In this document: in pieces, positions 13,637 to 35,098 of the stretch
Numbering within the stretch: position 1 is the first letter of the stretch
Layout of the letters: every line of letters begins with the position of its first letter
Origin: an uncultured bacterium
GTDB lineage: Bacteria > Chlamydiota > Chlamydiia > Chlamydiales > CAZBXE01
Assembly: GCA_964496125.1 (NCBI GenBank)
Contig: CAZBXE010000001.1
Location: 102,011 to 166,010, forward strand
Direction: 5' to 3'
DNA: 64,000 nt
Program-made: the position numbers and the translations under genes
Notes under the pieces: model-generated
Database searches by the model: none
What the model was told of the DNA's origin: nothing
The model's input: the letters and a program-made list of their open reading frames with translations, nothing else

Positions 13637-13642
13637 AGTTTT

Positions 13643-13718
<76 letters not shown>

Positions 13719-13729
13719 TTTTCCTTTCA

Positions 13730-13812
13730 GGGGGTGTCGCATAGCGGCCAATTGCTTCGGACTGTAAATCCGACGACTCCGGTCTACGCTGGTTCGAATC
13801 CAGCCGCCCCCA
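13730..13812 (+). tRNA. tRNA-Tyr (anticodon GTA), copy 1, long variable arm
   Basis: Acceptor GGGGGTG/CGCCCCC, anticodon stem TCGGA/TCCGA, loop CTGTAAA, T-arm CTGG-TTCGAAT-CCAG. Confidence 0.9.
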
Positions 13813-13970
13813 TTTCTTTGGACGATTCTTAAAACCCAACATCGTTAAGAAGGGTTCTCTCACTGAAAATGAGAGACTTCCGTCTTTCAATTGCAAGTTC
13901 TGAAACAAAAAATTGTAATGACCAAGATATCATCGGACAGTTGTGTAGAAATCTCGTTTTCAAATACAAT

Positions 13971-25885: not shown

Positions 25886-25896
25886 TTTTCCTTTCA

Positions 25897-25979
25897 GGGG
25901 GTGTCGCATAGCGGCCAATTGCTTCGGACTGTAAATCCGACGACTCCGGTCTACGCTGGTTCGAATCCAGCCGCCCCCA
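25897..25979 (+). tRNA. tRNA-Tyr (anticodon GTA), copy 2
   Basis: Identical in sequence to 13730-13812, including the 11-nt spacer. Confidence 0.9.
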
Positions 25980-25990
25980 GTTTTTTTGGA

Positions 25991-26683
25991 GTGAGATTGT
26001 TCGAAACGGCTCCGTTTCTTGTTCTTATCCTTCTAGTAGCGATACATCTTTTTGCTTGTAAAGCCGAACTCTTTGGTTGGCTCTGGCATGGAAGGTTTCT
26101 TTCGTTTGCCTCGGGGATCTCATTTGCTTATGTCTTTGTAGATCTATTGCCTGCTTTAGAAAAAAGGCAGCCCGTCCTTAAAGAAGCCTTCCATGGCGTA
26201 ATCCCTTATCTCGATTTACATGCGTATGTCATGGCTCTTTTTGGGGTTCTTTTTTATTACGGGCTGCATACGCAAACACCTTCCCTTAGAAATTTTTGGC
26301 TCTCCCTATCAGGTTATCTTCTTTTTAACTTTTTAGTAGGCGCAAGCTTGTCAGATGGGACAAGTCCTGATATTCAACCCCTCTACCTTTTTGCGATCGC
26401 CATGGGGATGCACTACTTTATTCATGACCATATGGCAAGTCTCAGTTACCCAAACCTCTATCAAGCAAAAGTGCGCTTTTATTTGATTGGAGCGCTTTTT
26501 GCTGGATACTTCATAGGGGGAGTGATCCATATCCCGGAAACTGTGGAAGCTATTTTAGTTTCGTTTGTTGCCGGAGGCATGATTTTAAATGCTCTTGGCT
26601 ACGAACTACCCAAACGAGAACAAATTGGTTACGCCTTTTTTGTTCTTGGTTCCCTTTCTTACACAGCTCTTCTTCTCAGATAA
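25991..26683 (+). CDS. Polytopic membrane protein, tentatively ZIP-like metal permease
   Basis: The track ORF begins inside tRNA-Tyr, so I moved the start to the in-frame GTG 25991. It has about 7 hydrophobic segments and His-rich HYFIHDH and IHIPETVEA motifs (weakly like HNxPEG). Confidence 0.4.
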   Translation: MRLFETAPFLVLILLVAIHLFACKAELFGWLWHGRFLSFASGISFAYVFVDLLPALEKRQPVLKEAFHGVIPYLDLHAYVMALFGVLFYYGLHTQTPSLRNFWLSLSGYLLFNFLVGASLSDGTSPDIQPLYLFAIAMGMHYFIHDHMASLSYPNLYQAKVRFYLIGALFAGYFIGGVIHIPETVEAILVSFVAGGMILNALGYELPKREQIGYAFFVLGSLSYTALLLR

Positions 26684-26860: not shown

Positions 26861-27044
26861 TTGGAGCGCTTTTTGCTGGATATTTCTCATAGGGCGAGTG
26901 ATCCATGTCCCGGAAACTGTGGAAGCTATTTTAGTATCGTTTGTTGCCGGAGGCATGATTTTACATGCTCTTGGCAACGAACTACCCAAACGAGAACAAA
27001 TTGGTTACGCCTTTTTCGTTCTAGGTTCCCTTTCTTACACAGCT
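26861..27044 (+). pseudogene. Duplicated, frameshifted copy of the 3' end of the 25991-26683 gene
   Basis: Nearly identical by eye to 26487-26668, with a few substitutions and small indels (ATACTTCATAGGGGGAG vs ATATTTCTCATAGGGCGAG). Confidence 0.75.
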
Positions 27045-28974: not shown

Positions 28975-31095
28975 ATGTATAAGACAGGTATGGTCTTCAT
29001 TAGGTTTTTGCTTGCTAGTCTCTTGTTTTGGGCCCCCGGATTTGTGGGGGCCGCTGCTGCCCCACCTCCTAAAGTAGCAGAAGCTCCTGATCCGCTTAAG
29101 CTTAAAAGGGATTGGTGGGGTTATTTCGATGTTCCAATTGAGGAGCTGGCAGCAAGAAGCGAAAAGGCAACAAGAGCGCTCAAAAAACTAGCAGCAGGGC
29201 ATACGGAAACAGAGCATGCAGAGCTCGTGCAGCTAGTCGATCTTTTTTCTTTAAATATGAGACGCTTGCTCGAAGAGAAAAAAAATGAAGGAAACTTTCC
29301 TGATACGAAGCTGCAGCTTTTAAGCGAGTATTCTCCCGCAGAGCTTCTAAAAGTAAATCGAAACTACTTTAAAACCGACAGTGACCTGAAGGACCTAAAG
29401 AAAGAGATAGAAAGAGGGCTTTCTGCAAAAGCGCAGGTGCAAAGTAAGCAGGACCAACTTTTGATCGCGTATCCGAGTGTGCCTGAAGCAACTCTTGAAA
29501 AGCTCATTGCTGGTCTTAAGATCATGGTAAACCAAGCGGATATGCAGGCCCAAACTCTTCATCTTTCTTTTCTGCAAAAAAAACAGGAATTTCTTGAACA
29601 GGAGAGGTTGAGATTAAAGCAGGAGTTAACAATCGCAGAGGAAAGGCTGTCCGTACATGACGTCTCCCTTGCTACGCTTAGCCAGAAGATAAAGGAGCTA
29701 GAACAAAAGAAGGTAGATGCCACCGAAACGCTTGCTAAATTCCAAAAGCAAGTGACAGGAAAGAATGTAACCCAGCAGGAAAGCTTCTCTAACCAGGTCA
29801 AAGAAACCTCTCTCTTGATCGCAAGAGAACAAGCAAATGTGAATTTGCTTCTTGCCCAGGTTGAATGGCAGTTTGTAAACATAAAACAGGGAAGCGATAG
29901 GGGAGATATATTCTCTGCGCAAGACGCGCTTGCGGCAGCTAAAAGGCAGCTGACTGTTTCACAAGAAAGCGCTCTAAATTTGAGCATTTCTTTAGAGGAA
30001 CTACAGAATAAAATTCGTGCCGAGATTGTTCAGAAACTTGACGAAAACATGCCTGAGAAAGAGCAAGTTGTTCGTAGGCTCGGCTCGGAGATCGACCTAT
30101 CGGTGGCTAAGCTGTACGAGTTGAAGCTCAGCTTGCTCGATGCAGCTTTGTATGTCGATGTTCTAGAAGGCGCTTTGCTAAGGCAAAAGAAAGCCCCCGA
30201 GATGGCGCTTCTTCTACTCACTTCTTACTTGCAAAAGGTCGTAACCTTTTTTCAAGAGTTTGGTAATACAACGCTTTTTCGCATGCAAAATATGCCTGTG
30301 ACGGTTTGGAATCTGTTGAAAGGTGTTTTTATTTTAGCTTTGGCTTTTGCTCTTGCCAAAGCATGTAGCTACCTTCTCCGAGGGCGGTTGAAAGAGTCGG
30401 GTGCGCTTGCAAAAACGACAGAGTATATCCTCGATCGTTCCCTCTATTACACAATATTATCTCTCGGTCTTCTCTTTGCCCTTGCCACGATTGGGTTTGA
30501 CTTTACAAGCCTTGCTATTATTGCCGGTGCGTTAGGCGTCGGGATTGGCTTTGGTTTGCAATCGATTGTCAACAATATCTTTTCTGGTTTTGTCATCCTG
30601 ACGCAACGAAACATTAAAATTGGAGATATTGTGGAAGTAGAACCAGGTGTGGCTGGGCATGTCCATGAAATCAACTTGCAAAATACAACAGTGCGCACCT
30701 TTGATGGGATCTATCTCACTGTGCCAAACTCTAAGATTACAAGTCAGGGGATTAAAAACTGGACAAGGCGGGAGTGGATCAGGCGTTTTCGCATTCCTTT
30801 TGCCATTGCCTTAGAAGAAGACAAGGATCGGGTCCGTGGGCTTGTCATCGAAGCGGTTAAAAAACTTCCCTGCACGGTGAGTGGGCATGCCAAATTCCGG
30901 GATCCGCAAGTGTGGATGGTAGGCTTTGGAGAGAGCACTCTCAACTTAGAGCTTGTTGTGTGGACAGATCTTTCCGTTTCTTTGAAGGAAGGGACAGCAT
31001 CTTCTTCGTATTTTTGGGAAATAGAGCGAGTTCTTAAAGAGAACAAGATCAAGACAGTAACCTCTTGGCGTGGAAACCTAGAACTCAAAAGTTAG
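28975..31095 (+). CDS. Mechanosensitive ion channel (MscS family, MscK-like long form)
   Basis: Signal peptide, about 400 aa of coiled coil, TM helices, then the MscS core GVGIGFGLQSIVNNIFSGFVILTQRNIKIGDIVEV...LTVPNSKI. Confidence 0.8.
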   Translation: MYKTGMVFIRFLLASLLFWAPGFVGAAAAPPPKVAEAPDPLKLKRDWWGYFDVPIEELAARSEKATRALKKLAAGHTETEHAELVQLVDLFSLNMRRLLEEKKNEGNFPDTKLQLLSEYSPAELLKVNRNYFKTDSDLKDLKKEIERGLSAKAQVQSKQDQLLIAYPSVPEATLEKLIAGLKIMVNQADMQAQTLHLSFLQKKQEFLEQERLRLKQELTIAEERLSVHDVSLATLSQKIKELEQKKVDATETLAKFQKQVTGKNVTQQESFSNQVKETSLLIAREQANVNLLLAQVEWQFVNIKQGSDRGDIFSAQDALAAAKRQLTVSQESALNLSISLEELQNKIRAEIVQKLDENMPEKEQVVRRLGSEIDLSVAKLYELKLSLLDAALYVDVLEGALLRQKKAPEMALLLLTSYLQKVVTFFQEFGNTTLFRMQNMPVTVWNLLKGVFILALAFALAKACSYLLRGRLKESGALAKTTEYILDRSLYYTILSLGLLFALATIGFDFTSLAIIAGALGVGIGFGLQSIVNNIFSGFVILTQRNIKIGDIVEVEPGVAGHVHEINLQNTTVRTFDGIYLTVPNSKITSQGIKNWTRREWIRRFRIPFAIALEEDKDRVRGLVIEAVKKLPCTVSGHAKFRDPQVWMVGFGESTLNLELVVWTDLSVSLKEGTASSSYFWEIERVLKENKIKTVTSWRGNLELKS

Positions 31096-32097
31096 GCCGG
31101 TATGCAATCCGTGGAAACCAAACGATTGATCGTTTGCTGAAGTTGCCAAAGCAAAGGCTGCTCCCTCTACAGGGAATCTACGGATAGAGGGCATGTTGTG
31201 CCACTGCAGAAACTCATAACCAAGCGATGCAAGGAAGGTAAGATCGCAAATGCACACCTTAGCTTTAAAGCCCACATCTAAGTAGAGTCCCGGGGTGATG
31301 AAGTTTTGCCGGGCTGACAAAGTGAAGTTGGATTCTTGGGCTGATCCGAAATCAGAGATCTGTTGGTTACTTTCTGAGCTTTCTCCAAAGAGTAGGGAGA
31401 CGGATGCTTTAGAGTAGATCTGCAGAGAGCCGCAGAGATAAGAGGAAGCCTCGCTTCCGATCTTGAGTCCGATTCCTTTAAATTCTGAATGCCATTTTAG
31501 ACTCGAAGTAAGATTGCTTACAACATCGGAGGTAATCTCATCGTGGTGATTTTGCGTAAGCCTCATCCCTTCGACACCAAAGAAGGGACGGAAGGTGTTC
31601 CAATCGGTTGGTCTAAAGTCGTAGCGGAATAGGGCATCAAAGGATTCGTAGATATAACTTTGGTTAGATTGAATCGTATCCGCCGCGAAACTTAGCCCTC
31701 CGTGAAAGAGTGTGGGTAGGAGTGCATCATCAAGGAGAGAGGAAAGTGTGTTTCCTCTTTGGCCTGCGATGTAGGTAAAGCTTCCCAGGAAATCGGTTTT
31801 GAACCATACGCGATCAATGCCAAAGCCTGCTCTGATGCCAGGTTCGTAGTTATATCCAAGATACTGGTATCTACCCGTTCCGGTGACATTGTCTGTGATA
31901 AAGTTGGAATCGAAAAGGGCTGCGTAGTCGAGCTCTTTGCCACAAGGCATCCAATAGAGAAACTCTGCGGTGATGTTGTAGCCCCCATACCAGTCGCATT
32001 TAGTACCACAGTCACGTTCATAGCAGATCGCGTGACAGAGACTGGAGATGGCTAGTGAACTTGCAAGAATAAAACAGGTTAGGTGTGCACATTTCAT
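31078..32097 (-). CDS. Outer-membrane beta-barrel porin, MOMP-like / Legionella-OMP-like, Cys-rich N-terminus
   Basis: Signal peptide, 5 Cys in the first ~30 mature residues, AEFLYW block, alternating beta-strand pattern, C-terminal ...GLHTGLTFEF. Confidence 0.55.
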   Translation of the reverse strand: MKCAHLTCFILASSLAISSLCHAICYERDCGTKCDWYGGYNITAEFLYWMPCGKELDYAALFDSNFITDNVTGTGRYQYLGYNYEPGIRAGFGIDRVWFKTDFLGSFTYIAGQRGNTLSSLLDDALLPTLFHGGLSFAADTIQSNQSYIYESFDALFRYDFRPTDWNTFRPFFGVEGMRLTQNHHDEITSDVVSNLTSSLKWHSEFKGIGLKIGSEASSYLCGSLQIYSKASVSLLFGESSESNQQISDFGSAQESNFTLSARQNFITPGLYLDVGFKAKVCICDLTFLASLGYEFLQWHNMPSIRRFPVEGAAFALATSANDQSFGFHGLHTGLTFEF

Positions 32098-32568: not shown

Positions 32569-33066
32569 ATGAAGCAGCTTCTTATGTTGTTAACTTGTTT
32601 TTTTCTTTTCTGTTCTTCTCTCTTTGCTGAACAGGAAGCGCAAGCACCTGATTACTTTCGTCCTTTGACCCCTGAGGACAAGGAGAATATCAACTATATT
32701 GTTGATACTCTCTCTGATAAATCGGCAATCACTCTCCTGATTTATCAAAAAAATCTTGAAGAAACAGGGGGGAAAACAAGACCAATCCACCCCTTAAAGT
32801 TTCTATACTACGTCTTTACTGATCCGACTCTTCGAGCGGCCTCCCATAAGATTCGCCCTGTAGTTTGGCGTCGTTTCGTTCAAGGATTTGAACCTAGCTT
32901 TGAAGAAGAGGACAAGAGAAACAATTTAAAAATGGCAGCAATAGAAGATTTTTCGTCTGGGGTTCGCGTCAAAAAGGAAAAGATTCTTTCTTTGCTCAGA
33001 GCAAAGAAGTGGTCCGAATTTATGAATCTTGTCTTGGAAGAAACGAAGGAGGAAAGCTCCCCTTAG
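32569..33066 (+). CDS. Secreted hypothetical protein, paralog of 49475-49981
   Basis: Signal peptide MKQLLMLLTCFFLFCSSLFA. Shares the IHPLKFLYYVFTDPTL / VHPLRFLEAIFTDLST blocks and a similar length with the 49.5-kb gene. Confidence 0.55.
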   Translation: MKQLLMLLTCFFLFCSSLFAEQEAQAPDYFRPLTPEDKENINYIVDTLSDKSAITLLIYQKNLEETGGKTRPIHPLKFLYYVFTDPTLRAASHKIRPVVWRRFVQGFEPSFEEEDKRNNLKMAAIEDFSSGVRVKKEKILSLLRAKKWSEFMNLVLEETKEESSP

Positions 33067-33091
33067 AGAGAAGCCTTCCTCTTCTACTGGA

Positions 33092-33937
33092 CTACATGCG
33101 CCAGACAACGCCGATGTTCAAGATGTTGGCAGCAACATTTTTTGCTTGAGCTGTTACTTCATGATCTTGGTATCTAGGATTGCCAAGGCCTCTGTAACGG
33201 TATTCTGCAAAAATGCTCCAAGTTTTGCACCATGAGTAAGCAATACCCGCAATCCCTTGATAAGCAAATACTACTTTTTGGTCGCTGAATCTTGTTGACG
33301 AATGCTTGTTCATCCAAACAGTTGCACCACCAACACCGCCGCCTACATAGGGGGTAATGTTGCAGAATGCATTGTTCCAACCCCAGTAGCCGTTCACCAT
33401 ATAATGGAATATGTTTAGGCCACCGTCGTCTTTAAAATTGATCTCAAGATCATCGTCTCTAAAGTTTTTGAAGCTGTTTCTGTACCAAGCAAAATCAACT
33501 TCTGCTGCAAAGCCACCGCACCATTCATAACCAATCGAACCACCAGCGCCACCGCCTACATTATAGTCCAGTTTACCTGAACCGAAGGTAGGTAGGGAGC
33601 TGTTTGTTGGATCTTCTGATCCATTTGTTGTAATGGTTGTGTTTCTCATCCAGCTAAAGCCGCCGTAGGCAGACACATAGTAGTTGCCGCTTGGTGGGCA
33701 GCATGGAACGCAGCAAGGCGTGCAAGGATTGCAAGGCATAGCGCACGGTGCACATGGTGGTGGGCAGCATGGTTTTGCACATGGCTTAGGACATGGATTG
33801 CAAGGTGCACATGGGGCGCATGGCTTGCATGGGTCACACGGATTACAGGGGTTACAACCATTGTTGTATCCCGCTATAAGTGATGGGGAGGCAGCCAGTA
33901 AGCTCATTACGGCTGCTAAACGAAGTAGATTCTTCAT
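33092..33937 (-). CDS. Outer-membrane protein: (C-x-P)n cysteine/proline repeat region fused to a small OMP beta-barrel
   Basis: A signal peptide is followed by [53 protein letters not shown] (19 Cys, nt 33692-33856). Then comes a Gly/aromatic beta-strand domain ([26 protein letters not shown]). Confidence 0.65.
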
Positions 33938-34060
33938 TGAATACCCTCCTCAGGATTTACTACTTATAATTAAAAAAAGTCCTTAACTTTTTTTCTATAA
34001 GGCTTTCTCTCATTTTTCTGTAAGCATTATTTTTTTGAGGGGAGGGGTGTTTGATTCTAC

Positions 34061-35098
34061 CTATTTAATATTCAAAGACCTAAGACTAGAAAGTAGGCGG
34101 TTCTTATTTAGTTTTGCGATGTAGATGCTCTCGTCATTGCATCCATAAGCTAGATAAATGTAGGGAGGGTCTACAACGAATCCACCGGGGAATGTAACCA
34201 CTTTACCTGCTCTGTAAGAGGGTTTTTTATAAAAGCCTTTTCCTCCGAAGGGGTGTGGACTGACCGCTGTTAAGCGAAAAGGGGGTTGTGCTTCGAAGGT
34301 ATAGGCGCCGGTGAAGTAGTGGGGTACGGAGTGCATTTGTAGGTTAGAGATGCCGTAGCACATGGAATGAAAGAAGGCTAAATACTGGCCATCAACAAGA
34401 AGAGCTGTCGTTCCTCCTCTTAAGGGGAAAGGAGCGGTTTTGGAGTATAAATCCCATCTAATAGGGGCAGTTGTCTCAGCAATTTTGGGAGATAGGCCAT
34501 GATCAAGGGGTATTTGCAAAACTTTGTGAGGATTGATGCTATAGCTCATAAGAAGCTGGTTATGATAATCAAAGGGCACCCAGTTTTTTTCCTCTCTGTG
34601 CTCCCTGTGAGTTTCTAGATCGCGGAGCTGAAGGGGTTGACCTGCTTCCATTTGGCCATCTTTTTCGGTCAGTTTAGAGATGAAGATTTTTCGTCTGTAA
34701 TACTTTCCTTCAGCTCCTTGTTCTTTGCCTAAGTCATTAAAGACAATGTAGATTTCACCATTGACTTGCACAAGCCTTGGGTCTTCTGGGTTGTTTATAG
34801 GCGTATCTATAGAAGGGGGGATGTTAAGGTGGTGCCCTTCTCCTATTCGTTCAAAATTGCTACTCAGGAAAACAGTGCCTAACGTACTCACATACCGAGG
34901 GCCTTGGTTCCGATAGGCGAGTAAGTAACCCTCTTTGTAGGGCACAATGCTAGGATTGATGGCGTTCGCTCCTGGAATGGTGATCTTTTTTAACTCAAGA
35001 ACAAGTGGTTCGAAGTTTTGTATATTAATTCTTGATACTTTAGCTTCAAGGGACGCTAGGAAAATGATCCAGATAAAAAGATGAGCTACAAATCTCAT
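34061..35098 (-). CDS. Secreted hypothetical protein, possibly a beta-propeller glycosidase/phosphorylase-like fold
   Basis: Signal peptide. NPEDPRLV..NGEIYIVFND, EKNWVPF, RGGTTALLVDGQYLAFFH and GAYTFEAQPPF blocks recall GH130/DUF377-type proteins. The assignment is uncertain. Confidence 0.3.
   Translation of the reverse strand: MRFVAHLFIWIIFLASLEAKVSRINIQNFEPLVLELKKITIPGANAINPSIVPYKEGYLLAYRNQGPRYVSTLGTVFLSSNFERIGEGHHLNIPPSIDTPINNPEDPRLVQVNGEIYIVFNDLGKEQGAEGKYYRRKIFISKLTEKDGQMEAGQPLQLRDLETHREHREEKNWVPFDYHNQLLMSYSINPHKVLQIPLDHGLSPKIAETTAPIRWDLYSKTAPFPLRGGTTALLVDGQYLAFFHSMCYGISNLQMHSVPHYFTGAYTFEAQPPFRLTAVSPHPFGGKGFYKKPSYRAGKVVTFPGGFVVDPPYIYLAYGCNDESIYIAKLNKNRLLSSLRSLNIK

Follow-up and report, generated by a model that had tools for sequence, protein, structure and literature searches.

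A small outer-membrane barrel with a cysteine-proline tail in an environmental chlamydia: a candidate periplasmic disulfide anchor

Chlamydiae are the textbook example of an envelope strengthened by disulfides. The physical tie between the outer membrane and the Cys-rich layer of the periplasm is poorly defined, above all in environmental chlamydiae that have no MOMP. Could such a tie be built on a small beta-barrel? The question is raised by a gene on the minus strand of a 64,000-nucleotide (nt) stretch of DNA from an uncultured member of the Chlamydiales (contig CAZBXE010000001.1, positions 102,011 to 166,010; here referred to as the window). Its product is an outer membrane protein (OMP) whose N-terminal tail consists largely of Cys and Pro. 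A first-pass annotation, made from the letters alone, had proposed a cross-linking hub or a metal-binding module; its observation was confirmed, and its interpretation was partly supported. We estimate a probability of about 0.5 that the tail is a barrel-anchored periplasmic disulfide staple or hub that ties the outer membrane to a disulfide-linked layer.

The gene, its cysteine-proline tail, and its barrel

The gene and the signals that flank it are as follows (aa, amino acids; ORF, open reading frame; AF2, AlphaFold2).

33092..33937, minus strand: complete gene for the 281-aa precursor of the Cys-Pro-tailed OMP barrel (ORF list and sequence)
33945..33951, minus strand: Shine-Dalgarno-like GAGGAGG, 7 nt 5' of the ATG (read from the sequence; graded strong)
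33872..33937, minus strand: signal peptide, aa 1 to 22, of the signal peptidase I type, without a lipobox
33692..33856, minus strand: Cys-Pro tail, aa 28 to 82 (sequence count)
33095..33685, minus strand: eight-stranded beta-barrel domain, aa 85 to 281 (197 aa; Pfam, AF2, and Foldseek)
33092-33094, minus strand: stop codon of the barrel gene
33049..33081, minus strand: terminator-like hairpin of 15 pairs, directly 3' of the stop codon (consensus scan; a consensus match only)

In the signal peptide, a basic n-region precedes a hydrophobic core, the residue at position -1 is small, and AF2 models a helix at aa 2 to 15; the cleavage site was placed from the sequence, without a dedicated predictor. 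The Cys-rich region that follows lies where the first-pass annotation had located it; of its 55 aa, 19 are Cys (34%) and 20 are Pro. Given a window-wide Cys frequency of about 2%, the probability of finding at least 19 Cys in 55 residues is about 7e-19, and chance is excluded as the source of this richness. The whole protein has 22 Cys, and the three outside the tail (C140, C192, and C237) belong to the barrel. A protein identical to the gene product is on record at NCBI (P0131 in our set), on a contig that also carries the AccC of the window (P0009).

The earlier description of the tail as essentially a Cys-X-Pro repeat applies to a perfect (C-x-P)7 formed by the first eight Cys, and not to the remainder, an irregular part composed of CxxxC, CC, and CxPC. 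Intervals between successive Cys are 3 for the first seven, followed by 4, 4, 1, 4, 3, 4, 3, 3, 1, 3, and 1, and only the first 22 tail residues are in phase. Overall, we counted 15 CxP, 11 overlapping CxPC (i.e., CxxC-type), 7 CxxxC, and 3 CC motifs. Residues found at the x positions are N, D, K, A, T, V, and M; none of them is aromatic. Neither the tail nor the whole protein matched a PDB chain by sequence, and the tail alone matched no Pfam family at E <= 10.

At the DNA level, the imperfect 9-bp periodicity that had been noted is present, in a weak form (autocorrelation, 0.47 at lag 9, versus a background of about 0.25). Tandem Repeats Finder (TRF) recovered only fragments of 2.4 to 2.8 copies with 81 to 82% match from the array. 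The codons are mixed (Cys, 12 TGC and 7 TGT; Pro, 12 CCA, 5 CCT, 2 CCG, and 1 CCC), and because they have diversified, the array is not a slip-prone DNA repeat. The only other sample in which the gene was found, a contig from Logan run SRR11845633, is 100% identical to positions 32825-33922 of the window (1098 nt) and thus shows no variation in repeat length; the suggestion that the repeat may vary in length was not supported at the strain level. On the basis of the low TRF copy numbers, the mixed codons, and the identical second sample, we rejected a slipped-strand (contingency) repeat locus. An antisense 100-aa ORF (33684-33986, plus strand) with Gly-His-Gly-type repeats was also rejected as a gene, being the mere complement of the Cys-Pro array.

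The assignment of the remainder of the protein to a small OMP beta-barrel was borne out by three lines of evidence. In Pfam, the domain scored above the cutoffs of OMP_b-brl (PF13505; 34.3 bits, cutoff 28.7) and Surface_Ag_2 (PF01617; 32.9 bits, cutoff 22). The AF2 model comprises eight long strands at aa 85 to 280, mostly with confidence scores (pLDDT) of 85 to 97 (pTM, 0.66). Foldseek matched this model in the PDB to a series of small barrels, with the Legionella Dot/Icm porin III (9nh2_A) at the top (E, 7e-10), followed by the OmpA transmembrane domain, NspA, OmpW, Ail, and OmpX (E range for 9nh2_A and the first four of these, 7e-10 to 1e-6). The protein is a small eight-stranded OMP barrel with a signal peptide, of the OMP_b-brl/Surface_Ag_2 family. 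For the signal peptide and the tail, pLDDT is below 50. The barrel alone is modeled with confidence, and the structure prediction, one of the checks that had been suggested, does not supply a rigid rod; of the thiol-studded rod anchored by a barrel, the anchored tail stands and the polyproline-II geometry of the rod is putative.

The protein also differs from the known chlamydial Cys-rich OMPs, as had been claimed. In Pfam searches at E <= 1 (whole protein) and E <= 10 (tail), there was no match to OmcA (Chlam_OMP3) or OmcB (Chlam_OMP6). An OmcA-type lipoprotein was rejected on a second ground, i.e., the residues that precede the first Cys are Y-N-N-G and form no lipobox, with a type I site after LIA (by eye). 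MOMP and PorB (Chlam_OMP) were rejected because there was no Pfam match and because the barrel has 197 aa and eight strands, compared with a porin of about 40 kDa. OmpA proper (the OOP family) was rejected because the periplasmic peptidoglycan-binding domain OmpA_C (PF00691) was not matched and no sequence follows the last barrel strand.

Rarity and inheritance of the architecture

How widespread is this fusion? A word-indexed search of 5.8 billion clusters returned seven proteins. When 1.84 billion representatives were searched exhaustively with HMMER, 1517 barrel relatives were returned, of which only two had E values below 1e-30. One was a truncated call of the same gene, from the Logan run mentioned above, and the other was P0002, from JGI metagenome 3300023223 (contig Ga0255802_10154069, here L001). 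The barrel of P0002 is 41 to 50% identical to the window barrel. P0002 was called from an internal Met; when L001 was read further upstream, the barrel proved to be preceded by a signal peptide and by a Cys-Pro tail shorter than that of the window protein. The search for Cys-X-Pro-repeat OMPs elsewhere, which the first-pass annotation had recommended, thus yielded one metagenomic ortholog and no other barrel fusion. Contig scans of genomes and metagenomes with an alignment of these two sequences (A1) produced no further relatives, the window genome and L001 evidently lying outside those collections. The architecture is very rare; in everything searched, only the window lineage and L001 join a CxP array to a barrel.

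The two orthologs differ in the length and register of the array. The L001 tail has 12 Cys, and the position at which a further Cys codon would be expected holds an in-frame TGA (at about 571-573; CCPQP*GPGPKPC), i.e., 12 to 13 Cys versus 19 in the window, and array length does differ between distant orthologs. It is because of this TGA that the gene caller began at the internal Met. The TGA is probably a sequencing error or the mark of a pseudogene. Selenocysteine was considered and is unlikely, as no stable downstream (SECIS-like) hairpin was found (z, -0.5). Within the block PCNPCPKPC, which is identical in the two proteins, four of the nine codons differ synonymously and none differs nonsynonymously; because the shared block shows synonymous change only, the codon comparison points to purifying selection on the array. 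The gene upstream, encoding a GH130-like protein, is also kept in L001, where an ORF matches window positions 34082-34411 (38% identity; E, 1e-18). Judged from these comparisons, the architecture is inherited and held by selection in two lineages whose barrels are 41 to 50% identical.

CxP arrays without a barrel were found in a few other places. Scanning 185,579 species genomes for (TGY NNN CCN)x4 TGY gave at least 120 matches, and among the matches listed nearly all were perfect 9-bp noncoding tandem repeats or lay off frame in GC-rich genomes; such a scan is no census of CxP proteins. Two of the matches listed looked like real secreted proteins. One (L070; JASHWM010000133.1, 101-259, minus strand) is a 52-aa ORF of a Candidatus Rhabdochlamydia sp. 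MAG (metagenome-assembled genome) with a lipobox-like signal peptide (VFAAAC), the CxP array CQPCSPCNPCNPCSPC, and the stretch VFAAACQPSQKPSSDASCQPCSPCNPCNPCSPCQPSN. It may represent an OmcA-like small Cys-rich lipoprotein that has escaped annotation; a published analysis of the R. helvetica genome reported no OmcA or OmcB (PMC6490308). The other (L108) is a lipoprotein-like protein with a CxP run from Planctomycetaceae bacterium TMED10.

A metagenome scan for a 10-residue CxP stretch identified 17 loci, none of which adjoined or bore a barrel. They include a lipoprotein-like protein (L131), large Cys/Pro proteins (L132, L141, and L136/L143), and a protein of 983 aa on a contig with 35% GC (L145). 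The sole match in a tail-only word-indexed protein search (E, 1.8) was P0008, a 69-aa secreted peptide from a Kiloniellales MAG that ends in a CxP array (L123, 867-1076; also L124 and L125) and shares a 10-residue stretch with the window tail. Its gene lies in a row consisting of a HisKA kinase, the CxP peptide, three genes of unknown function, and a protein with an FGE-sulfatase domain (FGE, formylglycine-generating enzyme), to which L124 and L125 add a weak DUF3105 match. Since the FGE recognition motif is CxPxR, P0008 could be a substrate of the neighboring FGE-type enzyme, going by its sequence and gene order.

P0008, L070, L108, and L131 resemble the window protein in that their (C-x-P)n array comes after a signal peptide and is encoded by diversified codons. 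They differ in being short (52 to 110 aa), in having a lipobox in some cases, and in that none adjoins or is fused to a barrel. We found no description of such CxP repeats in bacteria in the literature searched. The presence of secreted CxP peptides in Rhabdochlamydia, planctomycetes, and a Kiloniellales MAG suggests a wider use of the module.

Cysteine placement and the role of the tail

The evidence that bears most directly on the role of the tail comes from the position of Cys in related barrels. In a subset of the best 150 of the 1517 barrel relatives, we found short Cys clusters directly before strand 1, e.g., STCDECYC in P0132, QDCCFDEEPDCC in P0137, GCGGCCEC in P0155, YGCCE in P0152, and CCDDATCDAPCDTCDQTCDSCDGDC in P0192. 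The next-best match after the two family members is P0132 (MCB1134860.1), which NCBI labels "porin family protein [Chlamydiia bacterium]". A QueG encoded on the contig of P0132 is 62% identical to that of the window. We rejected P0132 as a positional ortholog, the upstream gene being different.

We aligned ten sequences (the window protein, the L001 ortholog, and eight Cys-bearing barrel relatives) under the secondary structure given by AF2 and DSSP. Cys columns are present in only five elements, namely, the segment before strand 1, turns T1, T2, and T3, and the C-terminal tails. Cys in the long loops amounts to two isolated single-sequence cases, one in P0155 and one in the L001 ortholog. The three barrel Cys of the window protein all fall in the turns and are putatively periplasmic.

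33518..33520, minus strand: codon of Cys140, turn T1 between strands 2 and 3 (Cys in 6 of the 10 aligned sequences, including the window protein)
33362..33364, minus strand: codon of Cys192, turn T2 between strands 4 and 5 (Cys in 8 of the 10, including L001)
33227..33229, minus strand: codon of Cys237, turn T3 between strands 6 and 7 (at least one Cys in the turn in most aligned relatives)
31078..32097, minus strand: nearby second OMP, Legionella_OMP/MOMP-like, 339 aa, 10 Cys (Pfam PF05150; E, 4e-17)

To our knowledge, all solved eight-stranded barrels have both termini and the short turns on the periplasmic side, and the small barrels matched by Foldseek agree with this in the location of their termini (an established topology for OmpA, OmpX, and NspA). 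By analogy with them, all 22 Cys of the window protein would face the periplasm. The tail is predicted to be periplasmic because the topology is of the OmpA/OmpX type and because Cys are confined to the presumed periplasmic side. Under that analogy, the tail is therefore most likely a tether or hub beneath the outer membrane and not a surface rod. The second OMP has the same design as the barrel protein, with four of its 10 Cys clustered right after the signal peptide (ICYERDCGTKC).

P0132 and the window protein have homologous barrels (E, 2e-20), and in both of them Cys precede strand 1 and occur in turns T2 and T3; P0132 lacks the Cys in T1, which the window protein shares with five other relatives. 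The OMP_b-brl relatives have 2 to 8 Cys before strand 1 (e.g., STCDECYC), whereas the long Cys-Pro array is found only in the window protein and L001. The cross-linking role proposed in the first-pass annotation fits this family-wide placement of Cys on what appears to be one face of the barrel. A simple sequence rule for spotting such anchors in other genomes follows from this pattern, namely, Cys ahead of strand 1, in T1 to T3, and at the C terminus.

Chlamydial envelopes are stabilized by disulfide-linked Cys-rich OMPs, and OmcA, OmcB, and additional Cys-rich proteins are present in environmental chlamydiae with the exception of Simkania (PMC2878342, PMC6490308, PMC2811131). Against this background, we propose that the protein, of about 28 kDa, would insert its eight-stranded OmpA/OmpX-type barrel into the outer membrane and hold the N-terminal tail of about 60 residues and the three barrel Cys on the periplasmic face. 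Stiffened by proline, the tail would be extended; in a polyproline-II helix, with three residues per turn, the in-phase thiols of (C-x-P)7 would line up along one edge, and the reach could be up to about 18 nm (about 60 residues x 0.31 nm). The 19 thiols, as 11 overlapping CxPC pairs, would form local intramolecular disulfides first after export. These would then exchange into intermolecular disulfides with other copies, with neighboring Cys-bearing OMPs, and with a periplasmic layer of the OmcB/OmcA type. The net role would be that of a redox-switchable staple of the disulfide-cross-linked chlamydial envelope.

The CxPC motif has the CxxC spacing of the thioredoxin motif CGPC. Because of this shared spacing, local disulfides between consecutive Cys are a plausible resting state.

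Several points weigh against this proposal. Localization, redox state, and partners are read from sequence and a structural model, and the topology of the tail is drawn from analogy. The low pLDDT of the tail leaves the rod without support from the model. OmcA and OmcB are assumed as partners for a genome of which 64 kb was read. A taxon was assigned for only a few of the Cys-bearing barrel relatives, and the neighborhood of one (P0188), with its Ank/SET genes, is also compatible with the Legionellales. If the in-frame TGA in the L001 tail is real and not an error, that copy is a pseudogene. Finally, CxxC arrays are also classic metal ligands.

A bolder version of the disulfide anchor, which we regard as doubtful, is a periplasm-spanning redox-switchable tether, a polyproline-II rod of up to about 18 nm with its thiols along one edge, in which local CxPC disulfides formed after export would be reshuffled into a zipper with the Cys-rich layer at the transition to the infectious stage. 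If true, the protein would be a protein-only disulfide counterpart of Braun's lipoprotein or of the OmpA-peptidoglycan link, setting and locking the spacing of the envelope. In that case, the CxP module, which has a lipid anchor in Rhabdochlamydia and planctomycetes, would be an envelope cross-linker of the Planctomycetes-Verrucomicrobia-Chlamydiae (PVC) superphylum that had gone unrecognized.

The array could instead bind or buffer metal in the periplasm, chelating Zn, Cu(I), or Cd in the manner of a metallothionein or as a string of CxxC held by the barrel. The density of Cys and of CxPC, CxxxC, and CC motifs in the tail is in favor of such a role, CxxC being an established metal-ligand motif, as is the occurrence of secreted CxP peptides outside the chlamydiae (i.e., P0008, whose gene adjoins a sensor kinase, and the lipoprotein-type L108 and L131). 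However, the tail matches no metallothionein or other metal-binding Pfam family, metallothioneins are not generally rich in proline, and no metal-resistance genes adjoin the barrel gene. Moreover, the conserved turn Cys and the relatives with just 2 to 4 N-terminal Cys suit cross-linking better. We consider metal binding unlikely.

Improbable to much the same degree is a purely self-associating zipper, in which tails would pair in register into a disulfide ladder and join the barrels into covalent oligomers without other partners. The period-3 Cys in a Pro-rich segment correspond to polyproline-II geometry, and hydra minicollagens form disulfide networks through polyproline-II stretches with Cys-rich ends (PMC2289959). 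In-register pairing, however, is at odds with the irregular remainder beyond the 22 in-phase residues and with the different length and register of the L001 array.

Much less likely still is a surface adhesin, with the tail displayed outside to bind host molecules. Cys-rich OmpA-family proteins of Waddlia have been discussed as possible adhesins (PMC2878342), and the NCBIfam model of the rickettsial adhesin Adr weakly matches the window protein, with a score that falls far short of the model's cutoff (E, 1.4e-6). The N termini of eight-stranded barrels, however, are established to be periplasmic, a 55-residue tail cannot thread so narrow a barrel, and the short turns that hold the remaining conserved Cys are on the tail side as well.

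We give very little credence to an enzymatic modification of the Cys (FGE-like or resembling that of ribosomally synthesized and posttranslationally modified peptides) in place of disulfides. CxP is the core of the FGE motif, and the P0008 peptide, which is unrelated to the window protein, shares a conserved operon with an FGE-sulfatase-domain protein on three contigs; in the window protein, however, no tail unit has an Arg at +4 (i.e., no CxPxR), no FGE homolog is encoded within the 64-kb window, and the tail remains fused to a membrane barrel. A nonfunctional low-complexity expansion or decaying gene, to which the restriction to two lineages and the L001 TGA could be ascribed, is highly improbable in view of an intact ORF with a ribosome-binding site and terminator, a shared block kept at the protein level through synonymous change only, and a codon diversity indicative of an old, maintained array.

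Genomic surroundings and comparison with known systems

The window has a GC content of 44.3%. Its AccC (2400-3776) is 75 to 78% identical to its best matches, of which the named ones are from Parachlamydiaceae MAGs, Protochlamydia amoebophila, P. naegleriophila, and "Chlamydiales bacterium 38-26". On this sequence identity, the host is an environmental chlamydia, in agreement with the chlamydial context invoked by the first-pass annotation. Other features of the window are listed below.

34061..35098, minus strand: upstream neighbor of the barrel gene, a secreted GH130-like protein (Pfam PF04041)
54490-56749 and 58009-60342, minus strand: region of RtcB, a phosphodiesterase-like gene, and BrnQ

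An F-box and WD40 beta-propeller protein, a eukaryote-like putative effector, is encoded at 36334-37443 (minus strand). F-box/WD40 proteins and eukaryote-type tyrosine phosphatases are typical of amoeba-associated chlamydiae (compare PMC4209131). Two tandem tyrosine phosphatase paralogs of this type (19505-21094 and 21104-22726) lie, together with an M4 thermolysin-like peptidase (23761-25722), between two copies of a tRNA-Thr(tgt) and tRNA-Tyr(gta) pair. The pair is doubled as a 180-nt direct repeat with 99% identity (13640-13819 and 25807-25986), and the copies are 12.2 kb apart; the interval may be an island with tRNA-repeat borders. The second tRNA pair is closely followed downstream by another direct repeat, of 158 nt with 96% identity (26511-26668 and 26887-27044), whose copies are 376 nt apart. 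Elsewhere, an RtcB RNA ligase adjoins a 2',3'-cyclic phosphodiesterase-like gene, followed by two tandem paralogs of the BrnQ branched-chain amino acid carrier.

A small barrel whose Cys would all be periplasmic, with the 19-Cys tail as the extreme case, is a concrete and testable candidate for the tie between the outer membrane and the Cys-rich layer. Like OmcA, OmcB, and MOMP, the window protein is a chlamydial envelope protein with unusually many Cys, in a group in which disulfide cross-linking replaces a thick peptidoglycan (PMC2878342, PMC2811131, PMC6490308). Compared with MOMP, its barrel is much smaller. The tail itself resembles a small Cys-rich peptide kept on the periplasmic side of the outer membrane, such as the 9-kDa Cys-rich lipoprotein OmcA, which is anchored by a lipid; the window protein has its barrel as the anchor.

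A similar Cys count is found in the "OmpA family" Cys-rich barrels of Waddlia and Estrella (13 to 19 Cys; Bertelli 2010, PMC2878342), which are also predicted chlamydial barrels with Cys clusters (CxC, CxxC, and CC). As far as a comparison by description goes, their clusters are spread along MOMP-related proteins, whereas the window protein packs 19 of its 22 Cys into a single proline-rich N-terminal tail on an eight-stranded barrel. Outside bacteria, the IgG3 hinge and the hydra minicollagens also combine proline-stiffened extended segments with closely spaced Cys into intermolecular disulfide ladders or networks (PMC2289959 for the minicollagens; analogy only). Those proteins are eukaryotic, unrelated in sequence (the PDB sequence search gave no match), and without a membrane barrel. 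We conclude that the window protein extends the chlamydial Cys-rich envelope proteins onto a common small-barrel scaffold.

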